A DNA stretch of 64,000 nucleotides from a virus. Below the pieces are notes generated by a model that saw nothing but the letters and a program-made list of their open reading frames with translations, did no database searches and was not told the origin of the DNA. Made by a program: the position numbers and the translations under genes. Below, piece by piece: positions 1 through 44,400 of this stretch. Location of the stretch: positions 1-64,000 of the IMG/VR virus record IMGVR_UViG_3300013126_000016; one strand, 5' to 3'. How positions within the stretch are numbered: position 1 is the first letter of the stretch; every line of letters begins with the position of its first letter.

Positions 1-3000
1 ATATCCTTTAACTGTAAAGCAACCTAGTAAACTATTATATCGATTACCTATAGAAAAAATAGGTTTTAATACATCACTATTTTTATATGGAACAGCACTA
101 TAATAAATATTTAAGTTTTCTTGGTACCCTACATACTCGAGAATGTTATAAAACATAGCAACTCTAGCACTACGAGTAAAAGGAATTACTTGAGTATCAT
201 AATAATTGTATTTTCTACCTTCTTGATACGCTAAACACTTCATAGCATCGCTAATAAATTCTGTTCCTTTATAATAATTCAAGTTTTTATTAGTTGCTTC
301 AGCTCTAGATGCAATTACGGTATCTACTATAGCGTCATTAGATGAGTTCTCACAAGCTCTTCTAAATTGACCATAAAAATTATTAAAAGGAGAACCGCTA
401 TCTTTTACACTTTGACTATTTCTATAATTAGGTTGAGAACTTATTGAAACAGGATTAGCACCACTTAAACTTTCATTATAAGTTCTATGTAAGGTAACCG
501 TAGCATTGCCAAGATTACTTCTTAAAAAATAATCTCCAGGTTCTATCTCATCAAATATTATAGGTTTAATACTAGCCCCACCTACAGTCCCACTCACAGT
601 TATTGAATCATTTGTACTATTATTAACTAATTGAAAGTCTCCAGTACTATCATTTTTGTTAGTTACTCTATAAACAGTGTTTACATTTATTCCACTTAAA
701 CTTCCTATAGACCTAAATCTTATTTTTAAGTCGTTTCTAATAAAGGTATTAGCTGCTGTTCTAAATAAAGAAGGGGTACCTGTTACTTGTGTTATTGCTA
801 GGCTACTATACTCAGCTGATACTGCGCCTTGTCTATCTCTATATATTCCAAAAGTTACTTGTTGACCTGTTCTATACAGTTGAGAATAACTATAATTAAA
901 AAACATTTCATCTGCTTCCACACACAATGTAATGTCATTATTGTTACCTACTCCAAATATTCCAAGACTCAATCCCCTATCATAGCTACTCATTTCCTTT
1001 ATTTTTGTACTGTTGGCTTTATAGAGTATCACTCTCATTCCACCAGTTTCAGTAAAATTTTGCCAAGGGCTACTGCTATTACTATAGTTTACAGAAGTAC
1101 CATTTTGACTTGTTGCTAATTGAAACCCAGTATCAGAGATTCTTTTTACCCAATAACCTGTTATTGGATGATATCTAGTAAAGTTTACTAAATTGCATCT
1201 TTCACTATAAACTAAATAAACAAAATCAGTATTCTTTAATCCATGATTATTAGTTGTATAAAATGTAAGAGGTGAACCATTAACATTAGCAAGGTTAGAG
1301 CTTGTTAATGATATGCTTACTTCTATTTTTACTGCGTCTACAGTACCATTAAACATCCCTTTATATACTGCTCTATAAGAGTTTTGAGGTACTTCTTTAT
1401 TAACAGTTAAAATACTTCTAGGAGTTCCAGAAAATTGTATGTCAGTGTACTCAGACCTTTTAATAGTTGACCCTTCTACAACTCCTGATAAAGTCGTTAT
1501 AGGCTTATTTAACATAGCATTTTCATAAGAAGTAGCCAACTTTATACTAAAACCCCAGTTTACTTGTATGGCATAATATACTGCCCCGTTTGTTAATCCA
1601 TTTAACGCACCTTCGTAAACTACAGCATCTCCTGTTCTTAAATAATGTGATGTGTACCCAGGTAACCAGTCTAAATTTAAAGTGTCTGTTCCACTCAATC
1701 CATTTACTATTAATTTAGGATTTAATTCATCTAAAACTACTTCTGGTACTACATAAACATTACTTGTATTACTAGCTGCACTAAATTGTATGGGTATGTT
1801 ATTAACAGAGTTACTCAATGTACTAGCTAATTGAAAAGTAAAACTACTGTAATTAGGACTCATAACATAATAAGTTGTTCCACTAGTAAAATTAGTTATA
1901 GAACCACTAAAAATTAATTTTACTTTTTGTCCTACTAATAACTGATGGTCTAGTTCTGTTGTGAAAATAGCCGCGCTACTTGTACCGCTTGTTACACTTA
2001 CTACGTTTTGCACTGTTTTTGTAACAACAGGCATACAGTACCCTTTTAAACCGCTAGAATATCCGCTTATATGAATCGTTGTTATAGAGGTACCACCTTT
2101 AGTATATGAAATATTAAATCTAGTAGCATCAACAATAGAGCTAACGTAGTAAACACCTGGTGTAAGATTAGTAATCGATAGGCCAGCTGGAATTGTTACA
2201 TTATTATAGTTTATAGCTTTTCCTACTACTAAATAATGATCGGGTAAAGTACCTAAAATAGACTCAGTACCATCAGCTAAAATATTTCCTGAAGGCATAA
2301 ACAACCCAGCTTCTTCCCAAGTCAATCTATAACTCCTGTCTTGCAAACTATCACTCTGTAACATAAATACAGGACTTAATATATATTTTCTCTTCTCTAA
2401 ATCACTTAGTTTATTAAATTGACTTTTATGTAATACCCATGTAAAGAAAATGTCTTGTTTATCTCCTGTACTTAAAGGAGTTATATTCAATGCTAAAGGA
2501 GAATTACTAGAGGACACCAGAGTGTAATCTTTTGAAACATCCTCCCCTTTACAATTTCTGAATTTAACCCCATCAAAATGATCCTTCCTTACATAAAACT
2601 CTGGTATCTCTAACATAGTATCCCCATGGACACCTGTCATGTCCGCATCTACCAATCCTAACGCAGGAGTTATTGCATTATCAGCATTCTGTCTATCTAA
2701 ACACTCCCACACTAATACTGTATTTACTTGACTGATTACTACACTATGCAAAACTCTATCACCTGTGTTATACGTTAAGTTAGAGTTGTAGATTGGTAAT
2801 AAAGTATTAGTTCTAGTAGTTGTGTTATAAGGATTTCTTATATAAGTATTACCTGTGCCTCCATAAAGAGGGCTGCCCCCATTGCCATACTCTGGTCCAC
2901 CTTCTTCTACTACTATCCATCCAGATTGTCTCATAAAGTTTACAGAAGAGCCTTGTGTTACATTAACTTGCAGATTATTAAAGGCATCTTCATACGTATT

Positions 3001-3687
3001 AGCTATAGAAAAAGAGGTATTGTTTATCTTAATAGCATAATAAATTCTATTGAGAGTTAAACCAGAATTTCCTACTTGTGTACATCTTATCCTACTCCCT
3101 GTTATTAGATTGTGATTACCTCTAGTAAGTAAACTGTACGTGTAAGAATAATTTGGAGATTGATCTAAACCATTAATCTGTAGCCTTGTAATCGCTTGTT
3201 TTCTTTGATATCCAATATCTGTATTTACTGGATTAGTCGATATTGTAAAGGCATTATTACCGGAAAAATCACATATAATCCTTTCTAATGTTCCAGCTAT
3301 TTTGCCTACTGTAGGATTAGTTTGACCACTACTTGTAAATCCAGCCTCACCTCGAAACGTAGTGGGATCCAAAGTTATATAATAATAAACTGTTCTGTCT
3401 TCCCACATGTTGCATACTTTTACATAACTATTAGCTGTTAAGTCTGGCTGAAATTTATATCCACTACTACTAGTTATTTCAGTGTTAGAACCTACATATC
3501 TATAATAACCATCATTAGATTGTTCATAGTAAGTATCATTTTCTTGGTTCCATATTAAAGGACACGATAATTTGGCAGACTCGCAGGTAGTTGCTATGCT
3601 ACTAGAACTAATAGCTGCTATTATATTAGGTTTTTTTAATACTAAGTCAAAACTTTGTGAGCTAGATCCAAATCCAAATGTAGGCAT
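1..3687 (-). CDS. Large virion/tail (fibre-like) protein, 3' end runs off the window start; absent from the ORF track
   Basis: ATG at 3687 (MPTFGFGSSSQSFDLVLKKPN...). The frame was open at both ends where I read it, ending ...IFSIGNRYNSLLGCFTVKGY at position 1. Repeated beta-rich modules such as NHNLITGSRIRCTQVGNSGLTLNRIYYAIKINNTSFSIA resemble those in phage tail proteins. Confidence 0.75.
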   Translation of the reverse strand, partial: MPTFGFGSSSQSFDLVLKKPNIIAAISSSSIATTCESAKLSCPLIWNQENDTYYEQSNDGYYRYVGSNTEITSSSGYKFQPDLTANSYVKVCNMWEDRTVYYYITLDPTTFRGEAGFTSSGQTNPTVGKIAGTLERIICDFSGNNAFTISTNPVNTDIGYQRKQAITRLQINGLDQSPNYSYTYSLLTRGNHNLITGSRIRCTQVGNSGLTLNRIYYAIKINNTSFSIANTYEDAFNNLQVNVTQGSSVNFMRQSGWIVVEEGGPEYGNGGSPLYGGTGNTYIRNPYNTTTRTNTLLPIYNSNLTYNTGDRVLHSVVISQVNTVLVWECLDRQNADNAITPALGLVDADMTGVHGDTMLEIPEFYVRKDHFDGVKFRNCKGEDVSKDYTLVSSSNSPLALNITPLSTGDKQDIFFTWVLHKSQFNKLSDLEKRKYILSPVFMLQSDSLQDRSYRLTWEEAGLFMPSGNILADGTESILGTLPDHYLVVGKAINYNNVTIPAGLSITNLTPGVYYVSSIVDATRFNISYTKGGTSITTIHISGYSSGLKGYCMPVVTKTVQNVVSVTSGTSSAAIFTTELDHQLLVGQKVKLIFSGSITNFTSGTTYYVMSPNYSSFTFQLASTLSNSVNNIPIQFSAASNTSNVYVVPEVVLDELNPKLIVNGLSGTDTLNLDWLPGYTSHYLRTGDAVVYEGALNGLTNGAVYYAIQVNWGFSIKLATSYENAMLNKPITTLSGVVEGSTIKRSEYTDIQFSGTPRSILTVNKEVPQNSYRAVYKGMFNGTVDAVKIEVSISLTSSNLANVNGSPLTFYTTNNHGLKNTDFVYLVYSERCNLVNFTRYHPITGYWVKRISDTGFQLATSQNGTSVNYSNSSSPWQNFTETGGMRVILYKANSTKIKEMSSYDRGLSLGIFGVGNNNDITLCVEADEMFFNYSYSQLYRTGQQVTFGIYRDRQGAVSAEYSSLAITQVTGTPSLFRTAANTFIRNDLKIRFRSIGSLSGINVNTVYRVTNKNDSTGDFQLVNNSTNDSITVSGTVGGASIKPIIFDEIEPGDYFLRSNLGNATVTLHRTYNESLSGANPVSISSQPNYRNSQSVKDSGSPFNNFYGQFRRACENSSNDAIVDTVIASRAEATNKNLNYYKGTEFISDAMKCLAYQEGRKYNYYDTQVIPFTRSARVAMFYNILEYVGYQENLNIYYSAVPYKNSDVLKPIFSIGNRYNSLLGCFTVKGY

Positions 3688-3806
3688 ATTAATTCTCTTA
3701 CTTGTTAATTTCTTTATATACTATCAATTTACTTTTTAATAAGGTTACTTAGAAGATAGCCGCGCGGCTTAACATTTAAAGTAGTACCTCTACTACTTTT
3801 TTTGTT

Positions 3807-4070
3807 ATGCCTAATACTAACCTTAAACCTGGTTTCGTCTACTTCATCGGCGATATCTACGCTAATAAAGTCAAAATAGGCTACTCTAAAAACCCTCATG
3901 GCCGCCTCAAACAAATCTCCACCACCTATCCCGGTAAACTTACTCTCCTTAAATGCATTCCAGGCTCTATTAAGGACGAACGCCTCTATCATAAACTCTT
4001 CTGCCACTCCCGCATCTGCCGTGAATGGTTTACCCTAACCGCTGATATCTCTCACTTCATTAACCGTTAA
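3807..4070 (+). CDS. GIY-YIG family protein (T5orf172/Mug113-like)
   Basis: GFVYFI...KVKIGYSKNPHGRLKQI...E..H..F...REWF pattern. Confidence 0.8.
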   Translation: MPNTNLKPGFVYFIGDIYANKVKIGYSKNPHGRLKQISTTYPGKLTLLKCIPGSIKDERLYHKLFCHSRICREWFTLTADISHFINR

Positions 4071-5113
4071 TGAATCTTATCTCTATGAACTCCGCCACTT
4101 ACTCCGCCACTTACTCCGCCACTTACCCCGCCACTAATAACTCTAAGCCTAAGATTAACTTTCCTAGGCTAGAGGCTATTAAAAAACTAAAATCTAGTAT
4201 CTCTACTAGAAACCGCTCTACCTCAGATTTTATTAAACCTAACGGCCGCAGCGCAGACTTTTGCCTCTCTATCGCTTATGGCTGTCTTCTTGGTTGCTCT
4301 TATTGCTATGTACAACGACATAACTTAAACGGCAACCCGCTAACAACCTATTCAAACAAAGACGAACTGTTCGTCGCAATCCTTAAGCACCATAACCTCC
4401 TTTTTACTCCTAAACCTCCTACTTTTAAACCCTGTGATTCTAACTATCCCTCCGGTGAATCTGACGTAATCAACTACACCTACGATGTTGGAGAATCTTC
4501 TGATGTTTTACTTAGAGTAATCTCCCCTGACCTTAACTGGTGGCTAACTAACCTAATAAATGTACCCTACCTTAAACCTACTTTTGCAACTAAAATCTCA
4601 ACCCCCGTTGCTATCTCCCGCTTAATAGACTGTCCTATACCTCGTAAAGCACGTATCCGCGCTTCTGTAGCCCCACAGAACATCATAGACCAAACAGAAA
4701 TTATGACTGCTAAAGTAACAGACCGTATAGCTGGTCTTAACTTAGCCTACGAAAAGGGTTATGAATGTCATCTCAACTTTAGTCCTATCATAGTAACCCC
4801 TACTTGGGTTGAGGATTACTCTAATCTCATGATTCTATTAGATGAGTTATTATCTCCTAAAGTAAAAGAACAACTGCACTGTGAGGTTATATTCCTAACC
4901 CATCACACTGCCCTCTCTAACTGGAATGCCAAAAACTTCCCTTTAGATAGCGAATCCCTACTTTGGACTCCTGAAAACCAGGAATTTAAAACCAACGGGC
5001 GCGGCTACGATGTTAAACGCTATAAGTGGCAACTTAAATCCCGTTATATCTCTACTTTTAAACAACTCTTGTCTAAATATATGCCTTACTGCACCATCCG
5101 TTACATCTTTTAA
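4070..5113 (+). CDS. Spore photoproduct lyase family radical SAM protein
   Basis: CxxxCxxC motif GCLLGCSYCY preceded by KPNGRSADF; YDVGESSD, FATK, RIRAS, HLNFSPII, EVIFLTH and a terminal IRYIF match the SplB-like family. Confidence 0.85.
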   Translation: MNLISMNSATYSATYSATYPATNNSKPKINFPRLEAIKKLKSSISTRNRSTSDFIKPNGRSADFCLSIAYGCLLGCSYCYVQRHNLNGNPLTTYSNKDELFVAILKHHNLLFTPKPPTFKPCDSNYPSGESDVINYTYDVGESSDVLLRVISPDLNWWLTNLINVPYLKPTFATKISTPVAISRLIDCPIPRKARIRASVAPQNIIDQTEIMTAKVTDRIAGLNLAYEKGYECHLNFSPIIVTPTWVEDYSNLMILLDELLSPKVKEQLHCEVIFLTHHTALSNWNAKNFPLDSESLLWTPENQEFKTNGRGYDVKRYKWQLKSRYISTFKQLLSKYMPYCTIRYIF

Positions 5114-5293
5114 TGTACTTTTACCTTTAGAGTTCTATAAAAAACTCTAAAGGTATATCTGTATATCTATTAAAGTACCTGTAAAAAAGATTAAAAAAAG
5201 AAGTTAGTTTTTCTAAGTAGCGTTAAGCAATTCCCCTCTTAACGCTTTTTCTATCTTCTGTTACTTTAGTTTTAGTTTACTTCTTTTATTTTT

Positions 5294-6703
5294 ATGACTC
5301 CTTCTATAGTTAGCAGACTTGAATTCAATCCCTCTACTTTTCTTAAAAATCTTAAAAGCATTTACTTCCCTGATAAAAAAATTCCTATCGGTAACGCTCT
5401 TAAATACATATACCTTGAACAAGTTACTTCTTCTGAAGCTTTACTAGTGTGTTACATAGGACAAGGGTGGTTTTCTGTCAGATTAGATTGTGTTGGGTTT
5501 ATTGGTACTTGTTACCTATTTGATGGACAAGATGCTTTGGATAGATTATCTAAAAGTCTTTCTGCTATTAAAGATAGCCCCGCGCTTCAATTCTTCCAGA
5601 CCCCTAACTCTAAAATGTCTGTTAACTTTGTCTTCCCTAAATCTAAATCTAAAAGCAATATTGCTATCAATACCTATAACAACGATTACTCTGATTTTAC
5701 TGAACCTTGGTTAACCAACTCCTCTCTCCCACTCTCTCAACTTATTCCTATCCCTAAATCTTCCCTTAAATACTTTACCTCCGGCCTCCGTATCGCTAAC
5801 TCTTTCTCTTCTCTCTCCTCTGATACCTTCGAAAAACCTGTTTGGCTCTGGTCTATTGACTCCTCCCTTTGGCTCGTTTGCACCGAAAAGTCCGGCATCA
5901 ATGGTGTCTCCCTTCTCTGCATCAAATTATATGACTGCACTTTTAATACCTTTAACATAGGTATAATGGGTAAGCAATTAATAAAGTCTGCTTACTTATT
6001 CTTTTTGTTTAATGAAATATCGTTGTGTTTAAATAGTGAAAACCAGTTCATTATTAAATCTGAGGAGTCTATGGCTATTCTAACTACTTTTAATCCTAAT
6101 CTTTATCCTGTCTATTCTAAAGGCTTTCAGAACTTTTTTATAGACCGCTCCCCTAATAACTTTCTCTGTCATCTTACTTTCTTTTTAGAAGACTTAATAA
6201 CTGCTGTTACTCTTTCTAGTCCTAAAAGTAATGATCTCAGCAACGATATTGTTCTAGAACTCTCTGATAGTCGTTCTAGTTTTATTCTTTCTAAAAGAGC
6301 TGATGCTACTAAACTAGAAAAATCTGAAATAGAAGTAGTAGATATGTTAGGCTCTCAGCAATGGGTAAATGTTGTTTTGTGTCATACTTATCTTTTACAA
6401 GCTCTATTAGCTTTAAAGAATAATTATCTTAGAGAAGAAACCTCAGAAAGTAGCCCCGCAAACTTTGACCCCGATGATTTTGAACAATATTCCTCTGATT
6501 CCCCTGATTCCCTTGATTCCTTTGATTCCCCTGATTCTCCTGATTCCTCTAAAAAGCTAATTACCCTTACTCTTGATTCTTTTAGAGAACATTATGTCCT
6601 CTACGTTTCTTCTTCTACTTTTACTAATCCTTTAATTAATCGAGATTTTTGTGCAACAATAATTTGTAGACCTCTACAACCTGATTCTATCGATGACCAC
6701 TAA
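5294..6703 (+). CDS. Divergent DNA polymerase III beta sliding-clamp-like protein
   Basis: C-terminal third (LEDLITAVTL...DIVLEL...FILSK...KSEIEV...VVLCHTYLLQALLAL) parallels DnaN domain III; a clamp loader is encoded in the same window. Confidence 0.45.
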   Translation: MTPSIVSRLEFNPSTFLKNLKSIYFPDKKIPIGNALKYIYLEQVTSSEALLVCYIGQGWFSVRLDCVGFIGTCYLFDGQDALDRLSKSLSAIKDSPALQFFQTPNSKMSVNFVFPKSKSKSNIAINTYNNDYSDFTEPWLTNSSLPLSQLIPIPKSSLKYFTSGLRIANSFSSLSSDTFEKPVWLWSIDSSLWLVCTEKSGINGVSLLCIKLYDCTFNTFNIGIMGKQLIKSAYLFFLFNEISLCLNSENQFIIKSEESMAILTTFNPNLYPVYSKGFQNFFIDRSPNNFLCHLTFFLEDLITAVTLSSPKSNDLSNDIVLELSDSRSSFILSKRADATKLEKSEIEVVDMLGSQQWVNVVLCHTYLLQALLALKNNYLREETSESSPANFDPDDFEQYSSDSPDSLDSFDSPDSPDSSKKLITLTLDSFREHYVLYVSSSTFTNPLINRDFCATIICRPLQPDSIDDH

Positions 6704-6878
6704 TCGCTTCCGCTATCCTGAGTACTTACATTGGAATTCTCTTATTCATTATTTACAAGTAAATGATGTACTTACTTATAAAAATAGTGAGGGAGAAACC
6801 AAACGTATTAAAATTGTGCAAATAGTTCAAGGAGTTACTGATTCTTATCCAAAGCTAGTCTACAAAATCTTAGATTAA
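6693..6878 (+). CDS. Hypothetical protein
   Basis: ORF tightly packed between its neighbours. Confidence 0.55.
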   Translation: MTTNRFRYPEYLHWNSLIHYLQVNDVLTYKNSEGETKRIKIVQIVQGVTDSYPKLVYKILD

Positions 6879-6882
6879 TACT

Positions 6883-7743
6883 ATGTCTCTACCTCCTACT
6901 TACTGTAAGCAACCTCATGACGTTATTGAATTTGACCGTTATTGTAATCATTGCGAACTTGGTCAACGATTACAAAAACATAACAAACGCGTTCTAGAAC
7001 TAGAACAAAAAGAAAACAAAACAAACAATGATACTGCTTATAGAAAAAAAGAACCTTTACTTTATAGCGTAGGGGGTGCAGGCCCTAACTTTTCTGACTT
7101 CTCCTCTATCCGCCTTATTATCCTCTCTGATTTCCCTGGCTCCTACGAATCAGACTCTAAAAACCTTTTCCCTATGGTCGATGTCCTTCGCGATCAAGTA
7201 CCTCGACGTAATGGTCTTGTTAAACGCCGCAATGCAGGCTCTATGCTCCGCTTTGCACTCCATTCTATGTACAACCTTGATACTTATCATGATTGTTGGA
7301 TAACTAACACACTTAAATGCACTCCTATGGATACTACTCCACTAGAAAGTAAGCATGTAAAACCTTGTGTAACTAAGTGGTTATCTAATGAGTTTTATCT
7401 TATAGACCAATACTTACCTAACATTCCTTTACTAGTGGCTGGTAGTCTTGCTTTTAATTCTTTAAAGTTTTTCTATAAGGAAGATAGTGTTTGGTTGAAT
7501 AAATTGTCTTTTAAAGATAGCCGCCGCCGCTCTGACCTCAAAATAGGCCTCACTAAACGCCCTTTTGTCGTTACTTATAACCCCGCCGCTATCGCTCGCT
7601 CTGAACCTACTATCACCACCTCTTTTAAATCCTCCCGCAAACTCTCCCTCCCCTCCCATAATGAGTGGCTTTACCCCCCTCTCCCCGGTAGCCCCTTATC
7701 CTCTTTTATTAAAGACCTCTTTATGCTCTCTTCTTTCCTTTAA
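6883..7743 (+). CDS. Uracil-DNA glycosylase family 4-like protein
   Basis: CxxCxL Fe-S ligands, LIILSDFPG (motif A equivalent), AGSML, WITNTLKCTP, PC..WL..E, TYNPAA (motif B equivalent). Confidence 0.75.
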   Translation: MSLPPTYCKQPHDVIEFDRYCNHCELGQRLQKHNKRVLELEQKENKTNNDTAYRKKEPLLYSVGGAGPNFSDFSSIRLIILSDFPGSYESDSKNLFPMVDVLRDQVPRRNGLVKRRNAGSMLRFALHSMYNLDTYHDCWITNTLKCTPMDTTPLESKHVKPCVTKWLSNEFYLIDQYLPNIPLLVAGSLAFNSLKFFYKEDSVWLNKLSFKDSRRRSDLKIGLTKRPFVVTYNPAAIARSEPTITTSFKSSRKLSLPSHNEWLYPPLPGSPLSSFIKDLFMLSSFL

Positions 7744-7747
7744 TACT

Positions 7748-10351: not shown

Positions 10352-10878
10352 GTAATTTAAAATTTAGCCTTAACCCTGATGAAAATGATGATGACGATGA
10401 AGAATATCCAGAGGAGGTACCTCAATCTATGCCAATAACAGAGTTTTTAGACTGTTTATCAGCTAAAGATAGAGAAGAGTTTGTCCGTACTTATAGTAGT
10501 TCTATAGAGGCCTCTAAAAAACCCTTCAAACCTTTAGCTACAGACCTTATTAAATCTGTTCGACAAGATGTTTTTCCTATCATTCAATCTTCTATAGACT
10601 CCTTAGCTAATGGCTCTTCTCCTAAATACCTCTTTTACTCTCTTGATTTTCTTGAAGACTCTATTAATAACCTAGTAAAAACATACAACACTCTGTCTAA
10701 ACAAGCTTCTAACTTCTTAGAAACGAAAGAGGAAAAAAGAGAATTGGAAGTGTATTTTGAACAGGTAACTAAACCTTCTAGAGACTCGCCTTCTATTATT
10801 TCTGCTCCTACTATCCAAGTTAGAACTTTTAGCGTAGCTATTCCTGACATTCCTGATGGGAAGAGTTCTGAAGAGTAA
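10348..10878 (+). CDS. Hypothetical acidic protein
   Basis: ATGA overlap with the helicase stop. Confidence 0.65.
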   Translation: MSNLKFSLNPDENDDDDEEYPEEVPQSMPITEFLDCLSAKDREEFVRTYSSSIEASKKPFKPLATDLIKSVRQDVFPIIQSSIDSLANGSSPKYLFYSLDFLEDSINNLVKTYNTLSKQASNFLETKEEKRELEVYFEQVTKPSRDSPSIISAPTIQVRTFSVAIPDIPDGKSSEE

Positions 10879-10962
10879 TAATCTTAAAGGTAGCCGCGCG
10901 GTGCTTTACTATATATAAAGCACCGCGCGGCTTCTTTTGTCCCTTAATCTTATTCCTTTGTT

Positions 10963-11595: not shown

Positions 11596-11664
11596 TATTA
11601 CTAGTTCTCCTATAGTTTTGTTTGAGTTAACTTATCAGGTAGCCGACCGGCTACCCTTTTATTT

Positions 11665-32772: not shown

Positions 32773-32884
32773 GGTAGTAGAAAGCCGCGCGGCTACGTTA
32801 ATAAATAAGTTAATAAATTTTTTACTTATAGAAGATACTATAAGAGTTAAATTAAAAGAAGTCGCGCAAATAATAAGAAAAAAT

Positions 32885-33847
32885 ATGTTAACAGAGCCCA
32901 GGTTAAGGTATAAGCCTTTTGAGTATGAAACAGCCCATGAGCTAGGTAAAAAGCAATGGAACTCGTTTTGGACAGCTGATGAGTGTGCCTTAACAGAAGA
33001 TATATTAGATTGGAATACAAAATTAACAGAAAATGAAAAGAGAGTAGTAGGAGGAGTTTTAAAAGGATTTACCCAACTAGAACTACTAATAGGGGATTAT
33101 TGGTCAGGAGTAGACAAATGGTTTCCAAAACCAGAAATAAGTTATATGGCAAAGACCTTCAGTGCGTTTGAGGGTATACATGCAGAAGCATATAATAAAC
33201 TAACAGAATCATTAGGTATAGATGATTTTGAGGCTTTTCTATCAGACCCCCAAGCAAAGAAAAGATTAGAAAACCTAATAGAAATAAAAAAAGAAACTAA
33301 AGAAGAGATAGCAAGATCGCTGGCTATCTTCTCAGCATTTGCAGAAGGTGTTTCTTTATTTTCATCCTTTGCAGTCCTAATGAGATTTCCTATAATGAAC
33401 AAACTTAAAGGAGTAGGTACTATAGTCGAATACTCTAGTAGAGACGAGAATTTACACTCTAAAGCAGGTATATGGTTATTTAATCAATTAATAAGAGAAA
33501 ACCCATTTTTAAAAACTAAAGAGCTAGAAGATAGTGTACATGAGGCTGCAAGAGTATGTGTAGAGTTAGAAGAAGGATTCATAAAGTCTATATTTGAGCA
33601 AGGGGATTTATTAGGATTAAAAGCAGAGGATTTAAAAAACTACATAAGAGCAAGGGCAAACCAAAAACTAATAGATTTAGGGTATAAGCCTATAATAGAA
33701 TACAATAGAAAATCAGCTGAGTCTATATCAAGCTGGTTTGATACATTAACAGCAGCAGGGAGGAATCATGACTTTTTTGTGACTACAGAAACCAACTACA
33801 GTCAAAGTAAGAAGTTTGATCCAAAGAAACTAACGTTTAACTTTTAG
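32885..33847 (+). CDS. nrdB: Ribonucleotide reductase class Ia beta subunit
   Basis: EGIHAEAY, AEGVSLFSSF, RDENLH, HDFF...TNY. Confidence 0.93.
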   Translation: MLTEPRLRYKPFEYETAHELGKKQWNSFWTADECALTEDILDWNTKLTENEKRVVGGVLKGFTQLELLIGDYWSGVDKWFPKPEISYMAKTFSAFEGIHAEAYNKLTESLGIDDFEAFLSDPQAKKRLENLIEIKKETKEEIARSLAIFSAFAEGVSLFSSFAVLMRFPIMNKLKGVGTIVEYSSRDENLHSKAGIWLFNQLIRENPFLKTKELEDSVHEAARVCVELEEGFIKSIFEQGDLLGLKAEDLKNYIRARANQKLIDLGYKPIIEYNRKSAESISSWFDTLTAAGRNHDFFVTTETNYSQSKKFDPKKLTFNF

Positions 33848-33858
33848 GGTTTAAAGAA

Positions 33859-35736: not shown

Positions 35737-35807
35737 ATAATTACAATTAGGCTATTTATAGCCTAATTACATTTACATTTACATTTAACAGAATTAATAA
35801 ATTTATT

Positions 35808-36263
35808 ATGATAGAAGATATAAGTAAATATAAAGACTTAATAGTAGAGTTATACAAGCTGCAAGCTAATACTTTTGTGCTTTATTTAAAGAGTTGGGGA
35901 GCGCATTGGAATGTAGAAGGAATAAACTTTATAGAATTGCATGAGTTATTCAAAGAGGTGTATGAGGGGTTAGAAGAAGAAATAGATAGGATAGCCGAAG
36001 GGATAGGCTCATTAGGGTATAAAGCGCCGGCTAACTTAGAGTTATATATAAAGTTATCTCAGCTAAAAGAATTTAAAGGAAGTGAGAGTTATGATATACT
36101 ACTCAGTTCTTTATTATCAGACTTATTAGAAATAGAAAGTTTGTTATTAAACTGTAATAAAGAAGCTGTAAAAGTAGAATGTGAGGCTATACTTAATATG
36201 CTACAAGATATAATAGAGCAAAATAGGGTGTATATATACAAACTGAGAAGGACTGTTAAATGA
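35808..36263 (+). CDS. dps: Dps/ferritin-like DNA-protection protein
   Basis: AHWNVEGINFIELHELFKEVY......DRIAE. Confidence 0.85.
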   Translation: MIEDISKYKDLIVELYKLQANTFVLYLKSWGAHWNVEGINFIELHELFKEVYEGLEEEIDRIAEGIGSLGYKAPANLELYIKLSQLKEFKGSESYDILLSSLLSDLLEIESLLLNCNKEAVKVECEAILNMLQDIIEQNRVYIYKLRRTVK

Positions 36264-36751
36264 TAATAGAGTATAATAAACTGAATTATTTAAAAAGTAC
36301 AGATGAAGTTTTGTATGTAAGTAGTAGTAGGAGTAAAAAAGGAGATATAGAGAAATTAAAGAAAGCAGGGGGATGGGAGAAGTTAGGATTTAAAGCTGGG
36401 TGGTGGGAAGTAGACGAAGATATAACAGAGTATGCGAACGTAAGACATGCAAAAAAGATAGTAAACTTTTTAAAGAACAGTAAGAATACTTTAATTTATG
36501 CAGAGCAGATAGAAATAGGGATAGTATTAGAAGCGTGTAGGGGAGTAATACAAGAAAATAAACTAGAAAGGTACAGTGTAGGAGATGCGGTAAACGGAAA
36601 GAGAAAGGTAATACCAGATGTATGGTTAGCGGCGTTATTAGACAATGAAGCTAAAATGGGTGGGAGATTGGTAGGAGAAATAGAAAGTTACTTAGCAACT
36701 CGAATAGCAATTGACAGCGCGGCTACAATTATAGAAGGAGAATTTGATTAA
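36260..36751 (+). CDS. Hypothetical protein
   Basis: ATGA overlap with dps. Confidence 0.6.
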   Translation: MIIEYNKLNYLKSTDEVLYVSSSRSKKGDIEKLKKAGGWEKLGFKAGWWEVDEDITEYANVRHAKKIVNFLKNSKNTLIYAEQIEIGIVLEACRGVIQENKLERYSVGDAVNGKRKVIPDVWLAALLDNEAKMGGRLVGEIESYLATRIAIDSAATIIEGEFD

Positions 36752-36754
36752 GTT

Positions 36755-36928
36755 ATGACTATAGAAGAGTTATTAAGCATAGCTATAAGATATAAATTAG
36801 GGAGAGAGAAGCTAGGGGATAATTGGACTATAGGAAAAGCAGTAGAGTACGAAAGTACCCTACCAAGAAAACTAACAATTGAAGAGTTAACTAAATTAAC
36901 TAAAAGAGAGGAGCAATTACAGTTTTAG
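36755..36928 (+). CDS. Small hypothetical protein (57 aa), convergent with the recombinase
   Basis: MTIEELLSIAIRYKLG...LQF*; hand-translated. Confidence 0.4.
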   Translation: MTIEELLSIAIRYKLGREKLGDNWTIGKAVEYESTLPRKLTIEELTKLTKREEQLQF

Positions 36929-38395
36929 AGTAATAGATATTTCCTTATTAGAGTTAATAGTAATGAGTTCTATTAGAAGGAGATAGATATCACGTTTTTC
37001 TTGTTTAGTTCTACTTTTAAAAAAGAGGTCATCTTGAAAACAATCTAAAAGGAGTTGACGTTTATTATTAATAGAAGTAGAAAGAGATTTTTCCCTATTA
37101 TTGATGTGGTCTATTTGTGAATACAGTTTACGAATATTAGGAGTAAGTTCTGGGTCTTCTAGGGATTCCAGGACTTTTATTTTATTAAGGATAGGAGCTA
37201 TTAAGGGGTTTACAGAAGTAGATTCAAGTTTTTCTTCTTTTACTAAAAGAGATACTTGGTATGCTTTGTTTTTGAGTTCAGAGATAACTAAATCTTCAAG
37301 ATAAGTATCTCTAGTAATAGAGCGATTAGAGCATATACAACTTTTATAAGCTGCGCGGCAGCGGTAGTAAACATAAGTAATACCATTCTTACTTTTAGTA
37401 CTGCAAGTGTCCATACTGCGGTTACAGTGAGGACATTTAATTAATCCTGTTAGAGGATAGCATTTAGAAGAAGTGCCATAGCCTTTAAGAGAGGAGTTTA
37501 GTTTTGAGATACTTAATACTTGTTCATACTCATAGTCAGACATTAAAGTTTGATCAGGGTGAGTATTGTAAAAGATGATATTGTCTTTTGAGGTGTTACG
37601 TCTAAAGTAAGATGTATGGCCTCTTAAAATAGGGGAATGAAGCCAAACTGAGAGGCCTTGGTAAGTATATAAATCAAAAGATAAATGGTTTCTTTCTCTT
37701 CGGAGGTTTTTAGAAACAGGGGGGAAAAGGCCATACTTAGACATAACAGTTCTGAGAGTAAGGCGAAGGGATTTAAGAGACAGATAGAGTTCAATGAGTT
37801 CGCGGGCTAAATTATGAATACTAAACTCTTGTTTAGTTTCTAATAGACAAAGAAAGGGGGCAGTATTAAGTTTAGGGTAACCGTTCTCTAAAACATACCC
37901 AAAGACTGGCATAGAAACCTTTTTGCTTTTTCGTATATACTCCCAAGAATCAGAATAGCGTTCTTTAATTCGTTCTATTTCGTTCCTGCTAAAAGTTACT
38001 AAAAGGCGGGCATGAGTACGACCTCCTACAGTAGTAAGATCAATATTATCTTTAAGTCCTATGCAAGGGGTATTAGTGCTAATAACAAGTTCGATAAATT
38101 CCTCCATTAAAGAATGAGAATCAGTTAATCTATCTAAGCGTGTAAGGACTACTTGACTAACAGAATTAGATTTAATTTCTTCCATGAGTTGGGAAAGACC
38201 TTTTCGTTTTTTAGAAGAACGAGAGATAACGTCCCAATAAATTTCTGTACAACCATAAGATTTAAGTTCATCTATATGTCTTTCAAGAGTACCTTGTTTA
38301 GACAATCCATAGCTGCTTTCAGATCTAGACAAGCGGGTATAACCAATAATACGATTAGAGGGGGAGGAAAAGATAAGATGACCTGTTTTATCCAT
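36917..38395 (-). CDS. Large serine recombinase (XisF-like)
   Basis: IGYTRLS catalytic Ser, RKGLSQL, TRLDRL, PVFGY, ILRGH, LTGLIKCPHC zinc ribbon, YYRC. Confidence 0.9.
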   Translation of the reverse strand: MDKTGHLIFSSPSNRIIGYTRLSRSESSYGLSKQGTLERHIDELKSYGCTEIYWDVISRSSKKRKGLSQLMEEIKSNSVSQVVLTRLDRLTDSHSLMEEFIELVISTNTPCIGLKDNIDLTTVGGRTHARLLVTFSRNEIERIKERYSDSWEYIRKSKKVSMPVFGYVLENGYPKLNTAPFLCLLETKQEFSIHNLARELIELYLSLKSLRLTLRTVMSKYGLFPPVSKNLRRERNHLSFDLYTYQGLSVWLHSPILRGHTSYFRRNTSKDNIIFYNTHPDQTLMSDYEYEQVLSISKLNSSLKGYGTSSKCYPLTGLIKCPHCNRSMDTCSTKSKNGITYVYYRCRAAYKSCICSNRSITRDTYLEDLVISELKNKAYQVSLLVKEEKLESTSVNPLIAPILNKIKVLESLEDPELTPNIRKLYSQIDHINNREKSLSTSINNKRQLLLDCFQDDLFFKSRTKQEKRDIYLLLIELITINSNKEISITLKL

Positions 38396-38491: not shown

Positions 38492-41400
38492 TTATTGTTG
38501 TTTAAAGAAAGCGAGGTCTTTTAGGGATTCTTCTGTAGTGTATTTAGGATATAAAGGGTCTAAAACTAGTAAGCCAAATCCGTCTGCAGTAGTTGAGTCT
38601 GTTTTTATATCTATAGAAGATGAACTAATAGAAACATCAAGGGTATATTGAGAAGGAGGGGTATATTGAGGATATTGAGGGTCGCTCCTGTATTGAACTG
38701 TAGGTTTAAAACCAGAAGAGTCTACAGTAAGTTTTATATTAGCAGTAGGTCTTTGCTCTTCTAATTTCTTCTTAGCGCGTTTTATTTCTACTATTTGTGA
38801 ATCAAACTCTAATACTATTCTTTGTAGTTGTTGATAATTTAAGACTGCTTTAGAATTAAATATATTAGTTTGGTCTTGAGGTTTAACAACAGGATTATCC
38901 GAGGGTAATTTAGCTATAGTACTTTCAAGAGCATTTTGAATAGGGGTAGGGACATTAGAGAGGAAATCGTATCCAGTAGTATTTTCGATTTGGTCAACAG
39001 TGGTCACATACCTTTTCCAGTCGTGGTCTAATGTTTCGCTGTTAGGGATATTAACAGCAATCACAGGGGTGCTAGAGGTAATATCTGAAATGCCAGAGGG
39101 TCGATCTAAGACAACAATTATTTTCCAGGTATATTCAGGGATATTAACTAGATTATTAATTTTCCCCTTGCTTCCAGAAACACCAGCAATAACATACAAG
39201 GTTTTTCCTTCTTGTATTAGTTTTCTACTGTAATCTTCTAAACTTGCCCAGGTTTTTCTATTATTAGTTTCTGTTTGAGGGATGATATTAGTCATTAAAA
39301 AAGTAGAGGAATTATCGTCCCTACTTCCTGTTCTATCCGAAGATGGAACTAAATGTCCTCTGTCATATCCAGAACCCCTATAATCACTTGGTTTTACAGA
39401 TTCCCACTCTTCTGGGAGACTGAAATCTGGTTTAAAATCATTTTGTCTTTTAGTGCTTCCTAGCCATAATTGATTAGCTTCCCATGATACCCAATTAGCA
39501 GTTCCAGTACTTCTGTTATAGGATAAAGCGTATTGTTCCTTTATCATTAGATAATTATTGGGACTACTAGTATTAGATTTAGCTTGACTAGGGTTACCAA
39601 GTAATAAATGAGGTGTTAGATATATCTGTTTTGGTGTATTAGGTGTACTAGATGTATTAGGTGTATTAGGTATATTAGGTATATTAGATTTATATTCTTT
39701 TGTTTTACTAACGGAGTCTAGTGGAACTTTAGTGTTAAACGCGCCGCTAAATATATCTATTAACTTATTACCTAATCTGTAAAGTATAGTTTGTCCTTGA
39801 TTAGGTATAGAGTTAATAAAGAAGAGATATTCATCTTGTCTCCTTTTTACTAGACCTCCTAAAACTCTACCATGATTATCTTTATTGTAAGGTAACAACC
39901 ATTTAGCAGCACTTAGATAATCTCCTTGATTTAAAAACTTAAGTAAAGTAGAGTTTTTAAATCCACCCACACCAGCATTAAAAGCAAAAGAAGTAAGAAT
40001 AGTAAACTGAGTTCTAGTTAAAGGTACTTTAACATTGTCTCTAACAGCTGTAGCAGCTTTATCCATATCCATAATAAAGATACGTTCTCCTTCTTGTTGG
40101 GTTATCCTTTGTCCCCACTTAACATCAGGTCCTGTATGACCATAACCTATAGTAAGAACACCCGTACCGTCATCATAAGTTTGAGGACGAAATTTTTCTT
40201 TATCTTTTATGTAATTAATTATTTGTTGATCATGCTGTATATGAGTAGGTAAATATGGATTAAATAACCTATTATCTACTTTACTAGTAGAAAAAGAAGT
40301 ATTACTAATAGGAGTATTCTTAGTAGGTACTTTAATACCAGCAGGTAAGGGTCTTCTAGGTATATTAATTTTCTCAGATGCTATTAAATAGCGTTGTGGT
40401 TCTATTAAAGTATTTATAGAAGTAAAATTTCCCGCTCCTGCATAGTTAAACTGTTTAGGATTAAGTATTTTATCATTACTTTTTTGTGATGCTATTGAAT
40501 AGAGTTGTGGTTCTACTAAAGTGTTTACTTCTATAAACTCTCCTGCTCCTGCATAATTAAAGTGTTCAGGAGAAGTAGAAGATATTTGTTGTTTTTCTTG
40601 AGTATGTTGAGTAACTATTACTTGAGATGGTTTTATAGATTGTCTTCTAAACCTTTCTTTATAGAAACGAACTTTTTCTAGTAAGAGACGCATATCATGA
40701 GAACGAGGGTCTGACCTATTCTCATTACGGTCAACATCACGGTGTGTAGTTATTCTAGACTCAGGGATATTATATCTTATAGACAATTCCGCAATAGCCT
40801 GAGCCATACTATCGTATTGTTCAGGAGTATAGCCTGAGTGGCCTATAGAATAGGGGTTACTATTAGCTGGGGATTCATAGGAAAAGTGATAAGAAAAGTT
40901 ATTAACTGAAGGTTTCTGATTACGACTAACTCTAAAAGTTTCATTATTAAAATAAGAATTAGAAGCACCAAAAGCTCTTTTAGAGTAATCAACTAATTCT
41001 ATGACAGTTCCGTCTCTAGTGATTATTCTATGATAACTAACCTTAGATCTAGGATCTTTAAAATAATTAACAGCTGATCTAGCAGAACTGGCTGTCTCGT
41101 GTAAAACAATTAAAGGTTGATTAGTGGCAGGTTTGCCATAAGCATCAACAGTAAGACGTTCTCCATAGTTAGAGGGGTTAACTTGTTCTCTTATAGTTCT
41201 ATAAGTTCTATTAGTGGGTAGCTGCGCGGCGGCTGCCCTTGGAATTAAACTCTGTACTATTTGACTTCCTATAGACTGTTGTGCAGACTGTCTAGCTATT
41301 TCTAAAGTTGTACTTCTACGGTCATTACTAGAACCTGTTAAGTCTAAAGCTCTGTTAGTAGCTATTTGTATAGATGTATTATTAGCAACATTAGATGGTA

Positions 41401-44400
41401 TATTATAAGATATTATAGGAGCTGGCCCATATCTTATTTCTAACAACTCACTAATAGTTTTAAACTTATACTGTTTATTAGAAAAATATCTTATTATTCC
41501 TTCTAAAGAATTAACAGTATTTTGTCTTGAAAGATTTGTTTCCCCACTGTCAGGATCTTTTCTAAAACTATCATGAAGGAGTATTATTGAACCTTTTCCT
41601 AACCTTTGTCTACTAGTCTTTACTCCTAGAATTACGTTGTTAAGGATTTGATTACTAGAGGAAGCTCTAAAATCTTTAGGGTCTATATCTGCTCCTATTA
41701 TAGCATAGCCTAATCCTCTTACATATTCTACGATAGGAGTATTGTAATTAAAATAAGGGGCTCTAAAAGTAATATTAGTTTTATTAAAATTAATACCAGT
41801 AATACTTTTTAAAGTTTCAATATTATCAGTTATTTCTTTTTCTATTTCACCTGATGAGAGCTTTCCTAATTCATCTCCTGGAAGAGAAATCCCAGCAAAC
41901 TTTTTATGTTTTAAATGTCTTTGAGTATGTAAACCTAATTGGTGACCTTCTTCAACAATCCTTCTAACTAAATCTGGGTGTTGTTTAGCGTGTATACCCA
42001 TAAGATAAAAAGTAGCTTTTACTCCGCTTTCCTTAAGAATGTCTAAAATTCTTGGAGTAAATAAAGGGTCAGGTCCATCGTCAAAAGTGAGAGCTACTAC
42101 TTTTTCTTGGGTATTAATATAATCTATAGGTTCTCTAGGAGGGTTATTAACTAAACTAGTAGGTAAAGCTTTGTACTGCCTAATAGCTTGAGTTAAAGGT
42201 ACTCTAGTTAAAGGTGGTGTTGATGATCGTGGTGGTGGTGGTGTACTTCTATTTCCTACATATTGTGCATATCTAGTTCTAGCAAATCTCATGAACTCAG
42301 ATAATTTGCCGGTTGGTTTTGCTTGATTAGGGTATTGACTTTTTCCTTCATCTGTTTGTAGGGGAGTCCATATACCAGATATTTCAAAGAATATACTACT
42401 TTTTATGTTTCTATTTTCTGAAAAAGCACTTATAACTTCATTTAAGTATGCTCCATTTCCCCTTTCAAAAAGTAAGTATATAGCTAATAAATCTTGTACA
42501 CCTGGTTCATAAGAAGGTTTAGATCTAAATAATTTCCTTAGAGTAGAATTAGCCCTTCGCCACTCAAGGTGAGGTGGGTTATTGTACATTATTTGATATC
42601 GTCCTGAAGCAGTAAAGGCTCCAGGTAAAGGACGATTATCGTAAGGCATTTGAGACAGATCAGTTAGCTCTGCCCCGCCATATAATTTAGTATAACCGTA
42701 GTTTTTAGTTGCATTATTAGGTAAAAAATCTGTTCCTTCTGATCTGGCTATAGCATCAAAAAACGCTCTTATAGCTGGGTGGTCTAAATATTGTTGAAGT
42801 TGTGTACCTAAAGGCGTTAAGTATGAAGTATCTCTAGGATTTAAAGGGTTATTACCTCTACCGGTTAGTATAGAACTAGGAAGGGTATTACTAGAGTAAA
42901 CATCATTTGCTATTGTTTGTGATCTGCGAAGAACATTAGGATTACCGCTGTTTAAAGCTTTAATATACCTTTCATGGTCTTCAACGGAAGCGGACAAGTG
43001 GACGTGAACATCTCCTGTAACAGCTGCGGCATTACTTTGAGTGCCTAAAAACTGACCTTCAACTACAGACTGACCGCTAGTAAAAGTAAGGCCTTTCAAA
43101 TGATACATTTGACCTAATATTCCTCTTTTGGAAGAGTCTCTTATAAAGGAGTCAGAAGAAAAAGAGTTTAAATAATCTTCTCTAGTTTTATAAAAAGTGT
43201 AGCCACCTAGTGCTGGTAAAACTTTTACAAAAGCAGTAAATGGAGAAGGAACTGGGACATCAGTAGATTGTTGACCTTTTAGTCTTAATACGTAATCTAT
43301 TTTTATTAGATTAGGGTTAAAAGGTTCTATTTCATCTCTTCCTCTACCAGGAATCCCTAAATCTCTATACCTCCTCCCACTTCCTGTTGTATTTCCTCTA
43401 TTTGTTGTACTTGGATGATGTATTGAAGTATCATTAAAAGTTTTAACTTTGTAAGGGCCTGACATTACGTCATAAGGAGCATAAGATACTCCTAATCCTA
43501 AAGGGGAGCCTGTAGGAGTTGGGGTTGAGGAATTAGCAGGAGGTCTAAAAGTTGCAGCATTAGTACGACTACCACCAGGTGAATAAGTATAAGGACCTAA
43601 TATAGCGCCAATAGCACCTCCTCCAATAGCACCACCGATAATAGCAAAAGGAGCAGCAGGGGGAAACAAAGCAGCTAATATACCACCAGCTACTAAACCT
43701 ACCCCGGCACCTACAGCAGTTGATAGAGCAATATGTCTTTGAAAATCTAATAAATCTCTACTAGAAGAGATCTTTAAAGCAGACATCCTTTGTGTGTAAT
43801 AAGTGTCTAATACATCGTTTAACACAGGAGAACCAAAGATTTCTAGAGCTATAGCAGCTCCGACACCAAGTGGGCCAAAGACAGAAAGGCCTAGACTTAC
43901 GCCGCTCATAATTATGTTTGTAGTTTCGCCGGCTAACTTTCTAGAAACGTATTCTCTACTTAACTGTTTTGGTTGACTTTCAGTGTCAAACATACTATAT
44001 AAAGATAATCCAGCTCTAAAACCAGAAATATAGCTCATATAAGAGAGACCTACACCTTTTACAGTGCTCTCAAAAGAAGGTATTTTAAAGAAATTACTTA
44101 CACTAGAAAGGTTTAAAGAACTAAGTTTAAAGTTTTTAATAAAATCAACCCCTTGAGGTAAATTAGAGACCAAAGGAATCCCTACAGAAGAATATAAAAG
44201 GGTAGATCCTACAGCTTGTTTTGTTTTATCATCATCTTTAGAAAACTGATTATAAGCTAAATAACCAAAGGTTAATCCTAAACCTAATAAATTTCCTGTA
44301 TTTGCTAACTTATTATTAAAACTAGAGCTAGTCGTAGATACTGCTTTATTAATAGTAGCTGTAGTAGTAGCTGTAGTAGTAGCTGTAGTCTTACCTAAAG

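Follow-up and report, generated by a model that had tools for sequence, protein, structure and literature searches.

Why does a short GC-rich word, repeated inside genes that are read in the same direction, face one way over one part of a viral genome and the opposite way over the next? The question is raised by IMG/VR record IMGVR_UViG_3300013126_000016, a single contig of 87,014 bp and ~34% G+C whose first 64 kb make up the window analysed here. In full, the word is a 22-bp palindrome, aaGGTAGCCGCGCGGCTACCtt, located in intergenic gaps; within genes it occurs as one arm only, a unit of ~16 nucleotides (nt) that reads T-A-A-A-r-r-TAGCC plus a GC run and that we call a half-site (Table 1). An earlier note had picked out 14 places as keeping the left or the right half of the palindrome, and each of the 14 carries the half assigned to it, within 0–4 nt of where it had been placed. 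We find that the unit is a strand-oriented genomic word with an unusual companion, a tract of biased composition that includes silent sites.

Both forms of the motif are strongly enriched. The pattern TAGCCGCG has 20 matches against 0.18 expected, a number reached in 0 of 100 shuffles, and with up to three mismatches the 14-mer matches 22 times (0.25 expected). Within genes, TAGCCSSS occurs 26 times, compared with 2.2 after codon shuffling (maximum 8 in 500) and 2.7 after synonymous shuffling (maximum 9 in 500). Because the synonymous shuffle preserves the protein, this enrichment marks the half copies as a DNA-level feature written through codon choice. The outer flank is also kept: among 65 aligned non-palindromic sites from this contig and two relatives (three genomes), A stands at −4 in 54, A at −5 in 39 and T at −6 in 36, and therefore the whole arm is retained rather than a chance GC word. 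Half-sites occupy a small number of phases in the reading frame, where they specify bland peptides (Ala-Ala-Thr/Asn/Ile, Ser-Pro-Ala, Leu-Ala-Gly). Copies of the motif are spaced ~0.9–1.8 kb apart in 3.7–11 kb and ~1–3 kb apart in 25–38 kb. These counts bear on the simplest alternative, namely that partial matches were chosen by eye in a compositionally skewed genome. The degenerate copies were originally picked by eye, and composition favours C-rich variants, TAGCCCCG among them, on strands rich in C (p8 up to 0.78). Against this stand the within-gene excess (26 vs. 2.2–2.7, never above 9 in 1000 shuffles), the conserved flanks, a downward skew step at 61 of the 65 sites, and enrichment over a reversed-word control in four related viral contigs located via the terminase and an exact 18-mer (TAGCCSSS 31 vs. 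4 in G001, 26 vs. 3 in G002, 18 vs. 2 in G003 and 11 vs. 0 in G004). A chance origin is scarcely credible and, as far as statistics can refute it, already refuted.

Half-site orientation flips with the large-scale skew in the first 45 kb. GC skew of the + strand is −0.18 to −0.30 at 1–11 kb, ~0 at 17–23 kb and +0.17 to +0.39 at 23–38 kb, with the cumulative minimum at 17,816. The + strand thus passes from C-rich to G-rich with genes still on + (to 36.75 kb), as the earlier note had described. Among strict half-sites, defined by absence of the second arm and excluding near-palindromes, seven lie on + and one on − left of 17.8 kb, and none on + and seven on − at 17.8–45 kb (P = 0.0014, Fisher’s exact test). 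The C-rich strand carries 14/15 of the strict half-sites below 45 kb, compared with a fraction of ~0.65 by composition (P = 0.014, binomial test); chance sites placed by composition alone fall on that strand in 62–68% of cases. A list built with a position weight matrix (PWM) behaves in the same way, with 8/9 sites on + up to 10,891 and 1/14 from 10,891 to 44 kb (change-point permutation, P = 0.0004 below 45 kb and P = 0.0098 over the whole contig). In 2–44 kb, therefore, the proposal holds that the C-rich strand carries the unit and that its orientation turns near the skew minimum. The flip falls somewhere within 10.9–26.6 kb, an interval in which nearly all copies are full palindromes, and it is consequently only loosely tied to the skew minimum. 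Orientation is independent of transcription, since both orientation groups lie in + strand genes.

Each group of half-sites points into a pyrimidine tract that extends to silent positions. A skew step alone is symmetric under reverse complementation, and polarity was therefore read at four-fold degenerate sites. For the six + sites of 4–11 kb, purines make up 0.28 of these positions of the motif strand in the 250 nt upstream but 0.05 at 17–150 nt downstream; for the seven − sites of 26–37 kb the corresponding fractions are 0.46 and 0.12. Upstream of the six + sites the four-fold composition is the genome’s usual one (T 0.67, A 0.22, C 0.06, G 0.06), and just downstream C rises from 0.06 to 0.48. 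The effect is one-sided, 3′ of the arm, is greatest at sites free of protein constraint, and decays with distance, with recovery over 300–800 nt. The suggestion that the unit is polar and points into pyrimidines is thus borne out in both groups.

Total composition changes in the same sense. Averaged over the 65 sites, the motif strand has a GC skew of +0.09 across the 200 nt before the site and of −0.22 after it, the downstream value being the lower in 61/65 and in all three genomes, and the columns 3′ of TAGCC are G-poor in the site alignment. Maps at 150-nt resolution show a sawtooth skew within intact genes, for example the helicase. In an unbiased scan of all 5- and 6-mers, motif words were the top markers of skew steps (GCGCGG, t = −9.7; TAGCCG, t = −7.7), and GC runs with CGCG have a mean step of −0.23, compared with −0.05 for other GC runs. 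Half-sites coincide precisely with the 5′ border of the pyrimidine tract and are not scattered through C-rich sequence. This placement, the enrichment and the conserved flank together exclude chance or pure composition. In the block 4070–11595, whose proteins include an SPL-like radical SAM protein, a UDG-family member and the helicase, the residues encoded after each half-site show a visible excess of Ser, Pro, Leu and Phe, and the DNA bias therefore extends to amino-acid composition. The translation of the helicase (7565–10351, Pfam Helicase_C), read by eye, also shows an insert behind the Walker A motif that looks like an intein (GIGKSQPTT|C...VTHN|T); part of this putative intein has ordinary, not pyrimidine-rich, composition.

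The large-scale skew may itself be built from these tracts. Over most of the contig the usual per-gene four-fold pattern is one of T-ending codons (~0.55–0.7), regardless of gene strand, and only 3.8–11.6 kb and 23.9–38.4 kb depart strongly from it. Both of these domains coincide with dense, like-oriented half-sites bearing tracts. Plus-strand genes in the right part of the contig (82114–82713 and 85449–87014) are only mildly shifted (0.42), which makes any replication bias that acts uniformly along the contig a weak one. The skew at 4–11 and 24–38 kb appears to be largely the sum of motif-anchored tracts, which may make much of it, but orientation that follows skew and oriented units that make skew cannot be separated from sequence alone. 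Whatever the function of the unit, large-scale GC skew in a phage can arise from local motif-anchored tracts and not from uniform replication bias, which is a caution for skew-based origin prediction. Alternative codes (TAG, TGA or TAA as sense) uncover no minus-strand genes beneath the pyrimidine-rich block, and the standard code fits.

The tract recurs in relatives. G002 and G003 are near-copies of G001 and were left out of the orientation and tract counts; a metagenome scan for the 18-mer added two further low-GC relatives, L043, a diverged homologue of the right arm (25–62% protein identity), and a palindrome-rich 56-kb contig. The four-fold purine fraction falls from 0.55 to 0.33 in G001 (25 sites) and from 0.55 to 0.35 in L043 (8 sites), more weakly in G004 (0.43 to 0.34, 9 sites), and the tract was not seen in the 56-kb contig. 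The related viral contigs span mainly the structural-gene half. No related contigs were found for the left arm and centre; for the helicase and the clamp-loader-like protein, no relatives emerged from the viral or metagenome contigs searched, and four homologous proteins were found. Other carriers were set aside: G006 (216 kb, primase 37% identical) has a GC content of 0.49, no skew and mixed orientation and is not the same system, and G005 (GC 0.60) and metagenome loci with GC of at least 0.44 carry the 18-mer but are unrelated. In Ga0172367_10000578, the 56-kb lake contig, positions 33884–56425 (L041+L059) hold ~10 full palindromes within 22 kb, interspersed with genes that have no homologue detected in the present contig, and this palindrome-dense part looks like a hyper-variable cassette region.

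Full palindromes look like intrinsic terminators. Their stems, GC-rich and 7–10 bp long, enclose 4-nt loops and are followed by T tails; the copies lie 5–20 nt past stop codons or provide the stop themselves (13574, 23081), and a palindrome follows nearly every gene at 10.9–23.1 kb. The perfect copies at 16910, 18026, 23081, 55371 and 82004 are all (5/5) outside genes or at a gene edge, and pairing is preserved in the loop and stem variants at 11640, 13873 and 19389. Under intrinsic-terminator criteria, the copies at 10892, 11638, 13870, 16905, 19385 and 23077 are terminator-like and half-sites are not; in 3.7–23.6 kb we count 21 terminator-like hairpins against 9.0 expected. At four-fold sites the full palindromes are accompanied by a weaker, two-sided purine change (0.60 to 0.45). 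Several intergenic hairpins, motif and non-motif, are directly followed by TTTACTAT (12551, 13889, 19222, 22868 and others), which resembles a −10 box and may be the promoter element of terminator-promoter cassettes; matches resembling sigma-70 promoters are not above shuffles (59 vs. 61.6).

These features support an alternative in which the palindromes are bidirectional terminators, or terminator-promoter cassettes like the promoter early stem-loops (PeSLs) of T4-type phages, that separate gene cassettes. One-arm copies would then have arisen as by-products, or would act as weak elements for pausing or roadblock; local purine/pyrimidine pressure would decide which arm survives, and the orientation flip would merely mirror the skew. 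PeSLs, as described in the accessible text of PMC2839356 and PMC4122927, repeat one conserved stem-loop in accessory-gene gaps, much as the palindrome here brackets nearly every gene at 10.9–23.1 kb; that text reports no half copies in genes, strand-polar tracts or orientation flip, and the promoter part here is putative. The 62–68% of sites that composition predicts on the C-rich strand, an expectation that the relatives do not exceed, also suits this alternative, as do the six terminator-like copies with their paired variants and the −10-like element. A one-arm copy, however, cannot terminate, yet it is tenfold enriched against a null that keeps protein and codon usage, with its outer TAAA flank kept. 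Its exact position at the 5′ edge of the tract, the orientation excess over composition in this genome (P = 0.014 to 0.0006, depending on the null) and the opposite orientation of two gene blocks transcribed the same way also argue against it; transcription cannot set the orientation, because both groups sit in genes read the same way. We regard this alternative as a real possibility, although on the unlikely side.

Extended inverted repeats are generally absent around the half-sites (6/31 reach z ≥ 3, and those are degenerate palindromes), and RNA folding gave no evidence for a structure centred on the half-site: folds of ±130 nt have a mean z of −1.3 against mononucleotide shuffles, and the strongest, at 8977, folds via unrelated local hairpins. 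Repetitive extragenic palindromes (REPs) with their associated tyrosine transposases (RAYTs) combine GTAG beside a GC-rich palindrome with a Y1 transposase gene. The arm contains GTAG, and no Y1 transposase occurs among the 28 proteins, a subset of the genes, scanned against Pfam. To our knowledge, cyanobacteria lack Rho. A Rho-type reading of the pyrimidine tracts (Rho logic from PMC13323073) was set aside, the host being probably a cyanobacterium (see below).

Between the two orientation groups lie full palindromes, both skew minima and a tandem array of 43-nt repeats. The array coincides with the cumulative GC-skew minimum and with the AT-skew minimum (18,448), and from the skew minimum and the repeats the centre looks like an iteron-type origin. 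A search of 17.9–19.5 kb against Rfam gave no family, with two matches far below gathering scores. Contigs of variants in other lakes carry different numbers of the 43-nt repeat (in run X3, 82 and 87 nt are skipped); the stretch 14.2–15.5 kb is uncovered in run X3, which we did not count as evidence. Assembled contigs also break or join at palindromes with sides of 20–26 letters, which we read as repeat artefacts of assembly.

We tentatively prefer, as a possibility still short of probable, a reading in which the half-site is a strand-specific, directional unit at the DNA level, serving in replication as a signal on single-stranded DNA, for instance for priming. In intergenic gaps, two arms lie back to back and fold into a hairpin that is also like an intrinsic terminator; within genes there is room for one arm, accompanied by 150–800 nt nearly purine-free on its own strand, silent positions included. 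Replication would start near the repeat array at 18.3 kb, and the unit would act on single-stranded DNA. The strand left single behind each outgoing fork would then be the purine-rich one in both arms of the genome, reading, 5′ to 3′, a purine tract followed by CGCGSGGCTAyyTTTA. The phage encodes a DnaG-type primase with a CHC2 zinc finger and a DnaG catalytic core, for which 5′-CGCGCGGCTACCTTTAA-3′ is the proposed template, and the site would be a fixed start signal for synthesis of the complementary (lagging) strand by this enzyme. Some DnaG primases reportedly start at 5′-CTA-3′ template triplets; a CTA start at these sites would presumably yield the GC-rich primer AGCCGCG. The first few hundred template bases ahead of the new strand would be purine-only and thus unfoldable, and the tract could come from selection or from a mutational footprint. 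The fuller version of this reading, in which half-sites are fixed lagging-strand start points and the silent-site sawtooth is the footprint of repeated initiation at the same places, selected or mutational, we consider quite unlikely.

Several observations weigh against the replication-linked reading. Beyond 45 kb the rule breaks down: strict sites are mixed at 45–87 kb (3 on + and 5 on −), and PWM sites at 49.6–65.9 kb are 4/4 on + despite positive skew, as the earlier note had cautioned for left-half copies at 49–61 kb, and those of the 74–83 kb run are mixed. General lagging-strand priming should need sites everywhere, and the rule fails outside 2–44 kb. For 31 sites the excess on the C-rich strand is modest under an 8-mer null from far flanks (23 vs. 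17.8 expected, P = 0.038), with 13.9 expected under a 16-mer null (P = 0.0006). Orientation in relatives has the same direction but does not go beyond composition, with 13/25 sites on the C-rich strand in G001 (15.7 expected), a contig whose own inflection in skew, at 9.1 kb, has sites of both orientations around it, and 6/9 in G004 (5.0 expected); L043 has 5/8, as composition predicts, the 56-kb contig 12/15 (8.8 expected, P = 0.07), and these two jointly 17/23 (13.8 expected, P = 0.12). The absolute purine drop is similar in both orientations (−0.09 at 43 concordant and −0.07 at 22 discordant sites), and several minority-orientation sites of this contig have no drop (54978, 76516, 76567). 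Lacking a second arm, half-sites cannot form hairpins, and a purine/pyrimidine bias this large needs transversions, which are not readily obtained from ordinary replication asymmetry. Finally, the skew arms are very unequal (~20–27 kb vs. 67–81 kb) in a contig that is incomplete.

Motif positions on the two sides of the centre are also roughly mirror-symmetric about 18,302, which raises the alternative that the arms pair with each other at the RNA or single-strand level. UAGCCSCGCG plus the pyrimidine tract would anneal antiparallel to the purine tract plus CGCGSGGCUA, seeded at the GC cores. Six pairs of sites, including 8977/27596, 7518/29060 and 10891/25735, have coordinate sums of 36,545–36,659 (a 120-nt window) and span 3757–32788. 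The tract geometry fits antiparallel pairing, with pyrimidines 3′ of left sites and purines 5′ of right sites, and 26599 is, as had been observed before, nearly the reverse complement of the variant at 8975 and 5575 (26599–26612 reversed is GGTAGCCCCGCGCT, compared with GGTAGCCCCGCGCC at 8975 and GATAGCCCCGCGCT at 5573). The symmetry, however, depends on the null (P = 0.0135 with the centre restricted to 17.5–19 kb, P = 0.0025 with shuffled gaps) and loses significance when the centre is left free (uniform null, P = 0.22). Mirror partners also lack matching core variants, the left and right arms of the layout share no sequence homology, and relatives of mixed orientation have the same tracts. 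We know of no precedent for arm-to-arm pairing of this kind and judge it very improbable.

Comparison with known strand-oriented words brings in a further alternative, a genome-wide recognition mark for a phage or host protein that binds or processes DNA (a self-mark, a Chi-like signal against nucleases, a nicking site, or a polar roadblock like stoperators or Ter), bound as a monomer per arm and a dimer per palindrome, with the facing groups set by genome ends or a central terminus and not by an origin. This would suit a conserved 16-nt arm present in many copies, as inverted pairs between genes and as singles within genes in few phases (AA[TNI], SPA, LAG), much like uptake sequences and Chi, and the recurrence of the exact 18-mer in related phage contigs from other samples. 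Two opposed groups match the geometry of Tus-Ter, or of Chi facing the ends if the virion ends lie at 18–19 kb, and the central GCGC is reminiscent of the nick sites of T5. No candidate binding protein was identified, however; the known systems are not known to have a compositional tract of 150–800 nt by the site, Chi and the FtsK-orienting polar sequences (KOPS) are 5–8 nt and not 16, stoperators track transcription direction and these sites do not, and orientation is mixed across half of a contig that is incomplete. We consider a recognition mark unlikely.

The individual parallels differ in what they share. KOPS and Chi, like other architecture-imparting skewed oligomers, are short words (5–8 nt) biased along whole replichores; KOPS are G-rich octamers that FtsK reads towards a dif site, and Chi is recognised from its 3′ side by the host nuclease (RecBCD or AddAB). 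The resemblance lies in a short word whose strand flips at the skew inflection, with CGCGSGGCTA on the G-rich strand pointing away from the skew minimum in 2–44 kb; the phage unit, in contrast, is ~16 nt, has a long tract, and is biased over only ~40 kb and mixed elsewhere and in relatives. The KOPS-like orientation that had been proposed is thus not supported as a replichore-wide rule (14/15 in 2–45 kb, 3 + and 5 − at 45–87 kb, mixed in G001). Cluster A mycobacteriophage stoperators and Tus-Ter likewise have many asymmetric sites in two opposed groups; stoperators are tied to transcription direction, whereas here both groups lie in + genes and no repressor or Tus-like protein was identified. 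DNA uptake sequences (DUS), uptake signal sequences (USS) and cyanobacterial HIP1 are over-represented words, with inverted pairs as terminators between genes and singles in favoured phases. USS flanks extend ~20 nt, and HIP1 is an 8-bp palindrome without polarity. The present word has another sequence, is phage-borne and has tracts of hundreds of nt.

Closest to the replication-linked reading are single-strand initiation signals, such as primosome assembly sites, G4-type origins and the mitochondrial light-strand origin (OriL), in which the hairpin is the active form. They too are orientation-specific and lie on the strand left single, and here the full palindromes are foldable and a DnaG-type primase is encoded; they occur, however, once or a few times per replicon and not as dozens of half-sites embedded in genes, and the phage half-sites have no hairpin. 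Strict half-sites have the orientation expected of a lagging-strand template around the putative origin (7 on + and 1 on −, then 0 and 7), and beyond 45 kb they do not; a primosome-like role, one of the parallels drawn in the earlier note, is possible. A literature search that covered subscription journals poorly and did not extend to supplements turned up neither a sawtooth skew anchored to a motif nor oriented half-palindromes in phages, and we know of no described system that pairs a 16-nt polar unit with strong local purine/pyrimidine asymmetry at silent sites. Few features of a sequence show how its genome is replicated, segregated or read, and strand-oriented words such as Chi, KOPS, Ter and stoperators belong to these few. 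The asymmetry described here sits inside conserved genes (helicase, primase, nucleases). Should the unit mark starts of replication, the direction of forks and the places of initiation could be read from sequence in uncultured phages, and this virus genome would hold a map of its Okazaki-type initiation sites, with fork directions given by the orientation of a 16-nt word.

Gene content suggests an uncultured freshwater cyanophage. Family searches identified replication and repair proteins (a clamp-loader-like ATPase, a helicase, the DnaG-type primase, a PD-(D/E)XK nuclease and a RuvC-like protein), enzymes of nucleotide metabolism (thymidylate synthase and both ribonucleotide reductase subunits), a large serine recombinase, a terminase and a baseplate protein. 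A 53-amino-acid (aa) open reading frame (ORF; 18637–18798, −) scores 25.8 bits with the Pfam family NblA (cut-off 25), which points to a host with phycobilisomes, probably a cyanobacterium. The nearest isolated phages by terminase are the Microcystis Ma-LMM01 group (36%), and lake and freshwater metagenomes contain near-identical DNA; with the gene content and the NblA match, these lead us to the assignment above. A megablast of 19–37 kb against phage records gave no match. Long ORFs in 4070–36751 are all on +, with only short nested ORFs on −. The contig is incomplete: a + ORF at 85431–87014 runs off its end and matches the start of a 4,484-aa ORF in G001, so at least ~12 kb are missing.

Table 1. 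Motif copies, repeats and composition domains, in order of position within each class
Feature	Position	Strand	Context
Half-site TAGCCGCGCTACTT	1968–1981	+	within minus-strand gene 1–3687
Half-site	5575–5588	+	gene 5294–6703 (peptide KDSPAL), then pyrimidine tract
Half-site	6451–6464	+	gene 5294–6703 (SESSPAN), then pyrimidine tract
Half-site	7518–7531	+	UDG-family gene 6883–7743 (KDSRRR), then ~1 kb tract
Half-site	8977–8990	+	helicase gene 7565–10351 (EGSPAP); GC skew +0.17 upstream, −0.73 downstream
Half-site	10056–10069	+	helicase gene (KLAGES), then pyrimidine tract
Left-arm copy	13574–13587	+	its TAG is the stop codon of gene 12599–13576
Half-site, + strand AGCGCGGGGCTACC from 26599	26603–26610	−	gene 25341–26798; + purine tract to left
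Half-site	27596–27603	−	DnaG-type primase gene 27021–28241
Half-site	30472–30479	−	PD-(D/E)XK nuclease gene 30113–31246
Half-site	36026–36033	−	ferritin-like gene 35808–36263
Half-site	36718–36725	−	gene 36260–36751
Half-site	37802–37809	−	minus-strand serine-recombinase gene 36917–38395
Half-site	43928–43935	−	giant minus-strand gene 38492–54283
Half-site, “wrong” orientation for skew	54978–54985	+	no tract after; four-fold purine 0.75 up, 0.78 down
Near-palindrome, 1 mismatch	3757–3770		gap ahead of plus-strand gene block; pyrimidine-rich domain begins here
Long hairpin form of motif	10891–10932		17 pairs, 7-nt loop, after gene 10348–10878; terminator-like
Palindrome variant TAGCCGACCGGCTA	11640–11653		intergenic gap; terminator-like
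Palindrome variant TAGCCTGCCGGCTA	13873–13886		ahead of gene 13897; terminator-like
Near-palindrome, 1 mismatch	14966–14979		directly past stop of gene 13897–14964
Perfect palindrome AAAGGTAGCCGCGCGGCTACCTTT	16905–16928		past gene 15844–16899; terminator-like
Perfect 14-mer palindrome	18026–18039		past gene 16988–18007
Palindrome variant, altered loop AGGGTAGCCACAAGGCTACCTT	19385–19406		ahead of clamp-loader-like gene; terminator-like
Perfect palindrome	23077–23098		GC skew +0.44 to left, −0.47 to right
Near-palindrome, 1 mismatch	25735–25748		within thymidylate-synthase-like gene (EKLAARL); sole “left-arm” copy on right side
Near-palindrome, 1 mismatch, right arm intact	29054–29067		at stop of gene 28244–29056
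Near-palindrome, 1 mismatch, right arm intact	32782–32795		past gene 32020–32772; matching site in relative L043 (position 320)
Perfect palindrome	55371–55384		between minus-strand genes; matching place kept in G004, G001
43-nt repeat, 4.4 copies, 93% identity, then AT-rich stretch (also 18455–18500)	18210–18398		candidate iteron-like origin
Strand strongly pyrimidine-rich at four-fold sites	3807–11595	+	per-gene purine 0.05–0.25; extra C
Strand purine-rich at four-fold sites	23888–38395	+	per-gene purine 0.54–0.85; inverted usage, A and G endings; genes to 36751 on +

Some features of the contig stand apart from the motif. The gene at 38492–54283 (−) encodes 5,263 aa and is one of two giant genes, the other being the truncated one at 85431–87014 (+). 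A perfect (TAAC) × 9.5 microsatellite at 55388–55425 adjoins the palindrome at 55371. In the gap after gene 23888–25132, near the start of the purine-rich domain, positions 25205–25240 form a perfect, spacerless 36-bp AT-rich palindrome (TAGATTTTTTTTGTTTAA/TTAAACAAAAAAAATCTA).

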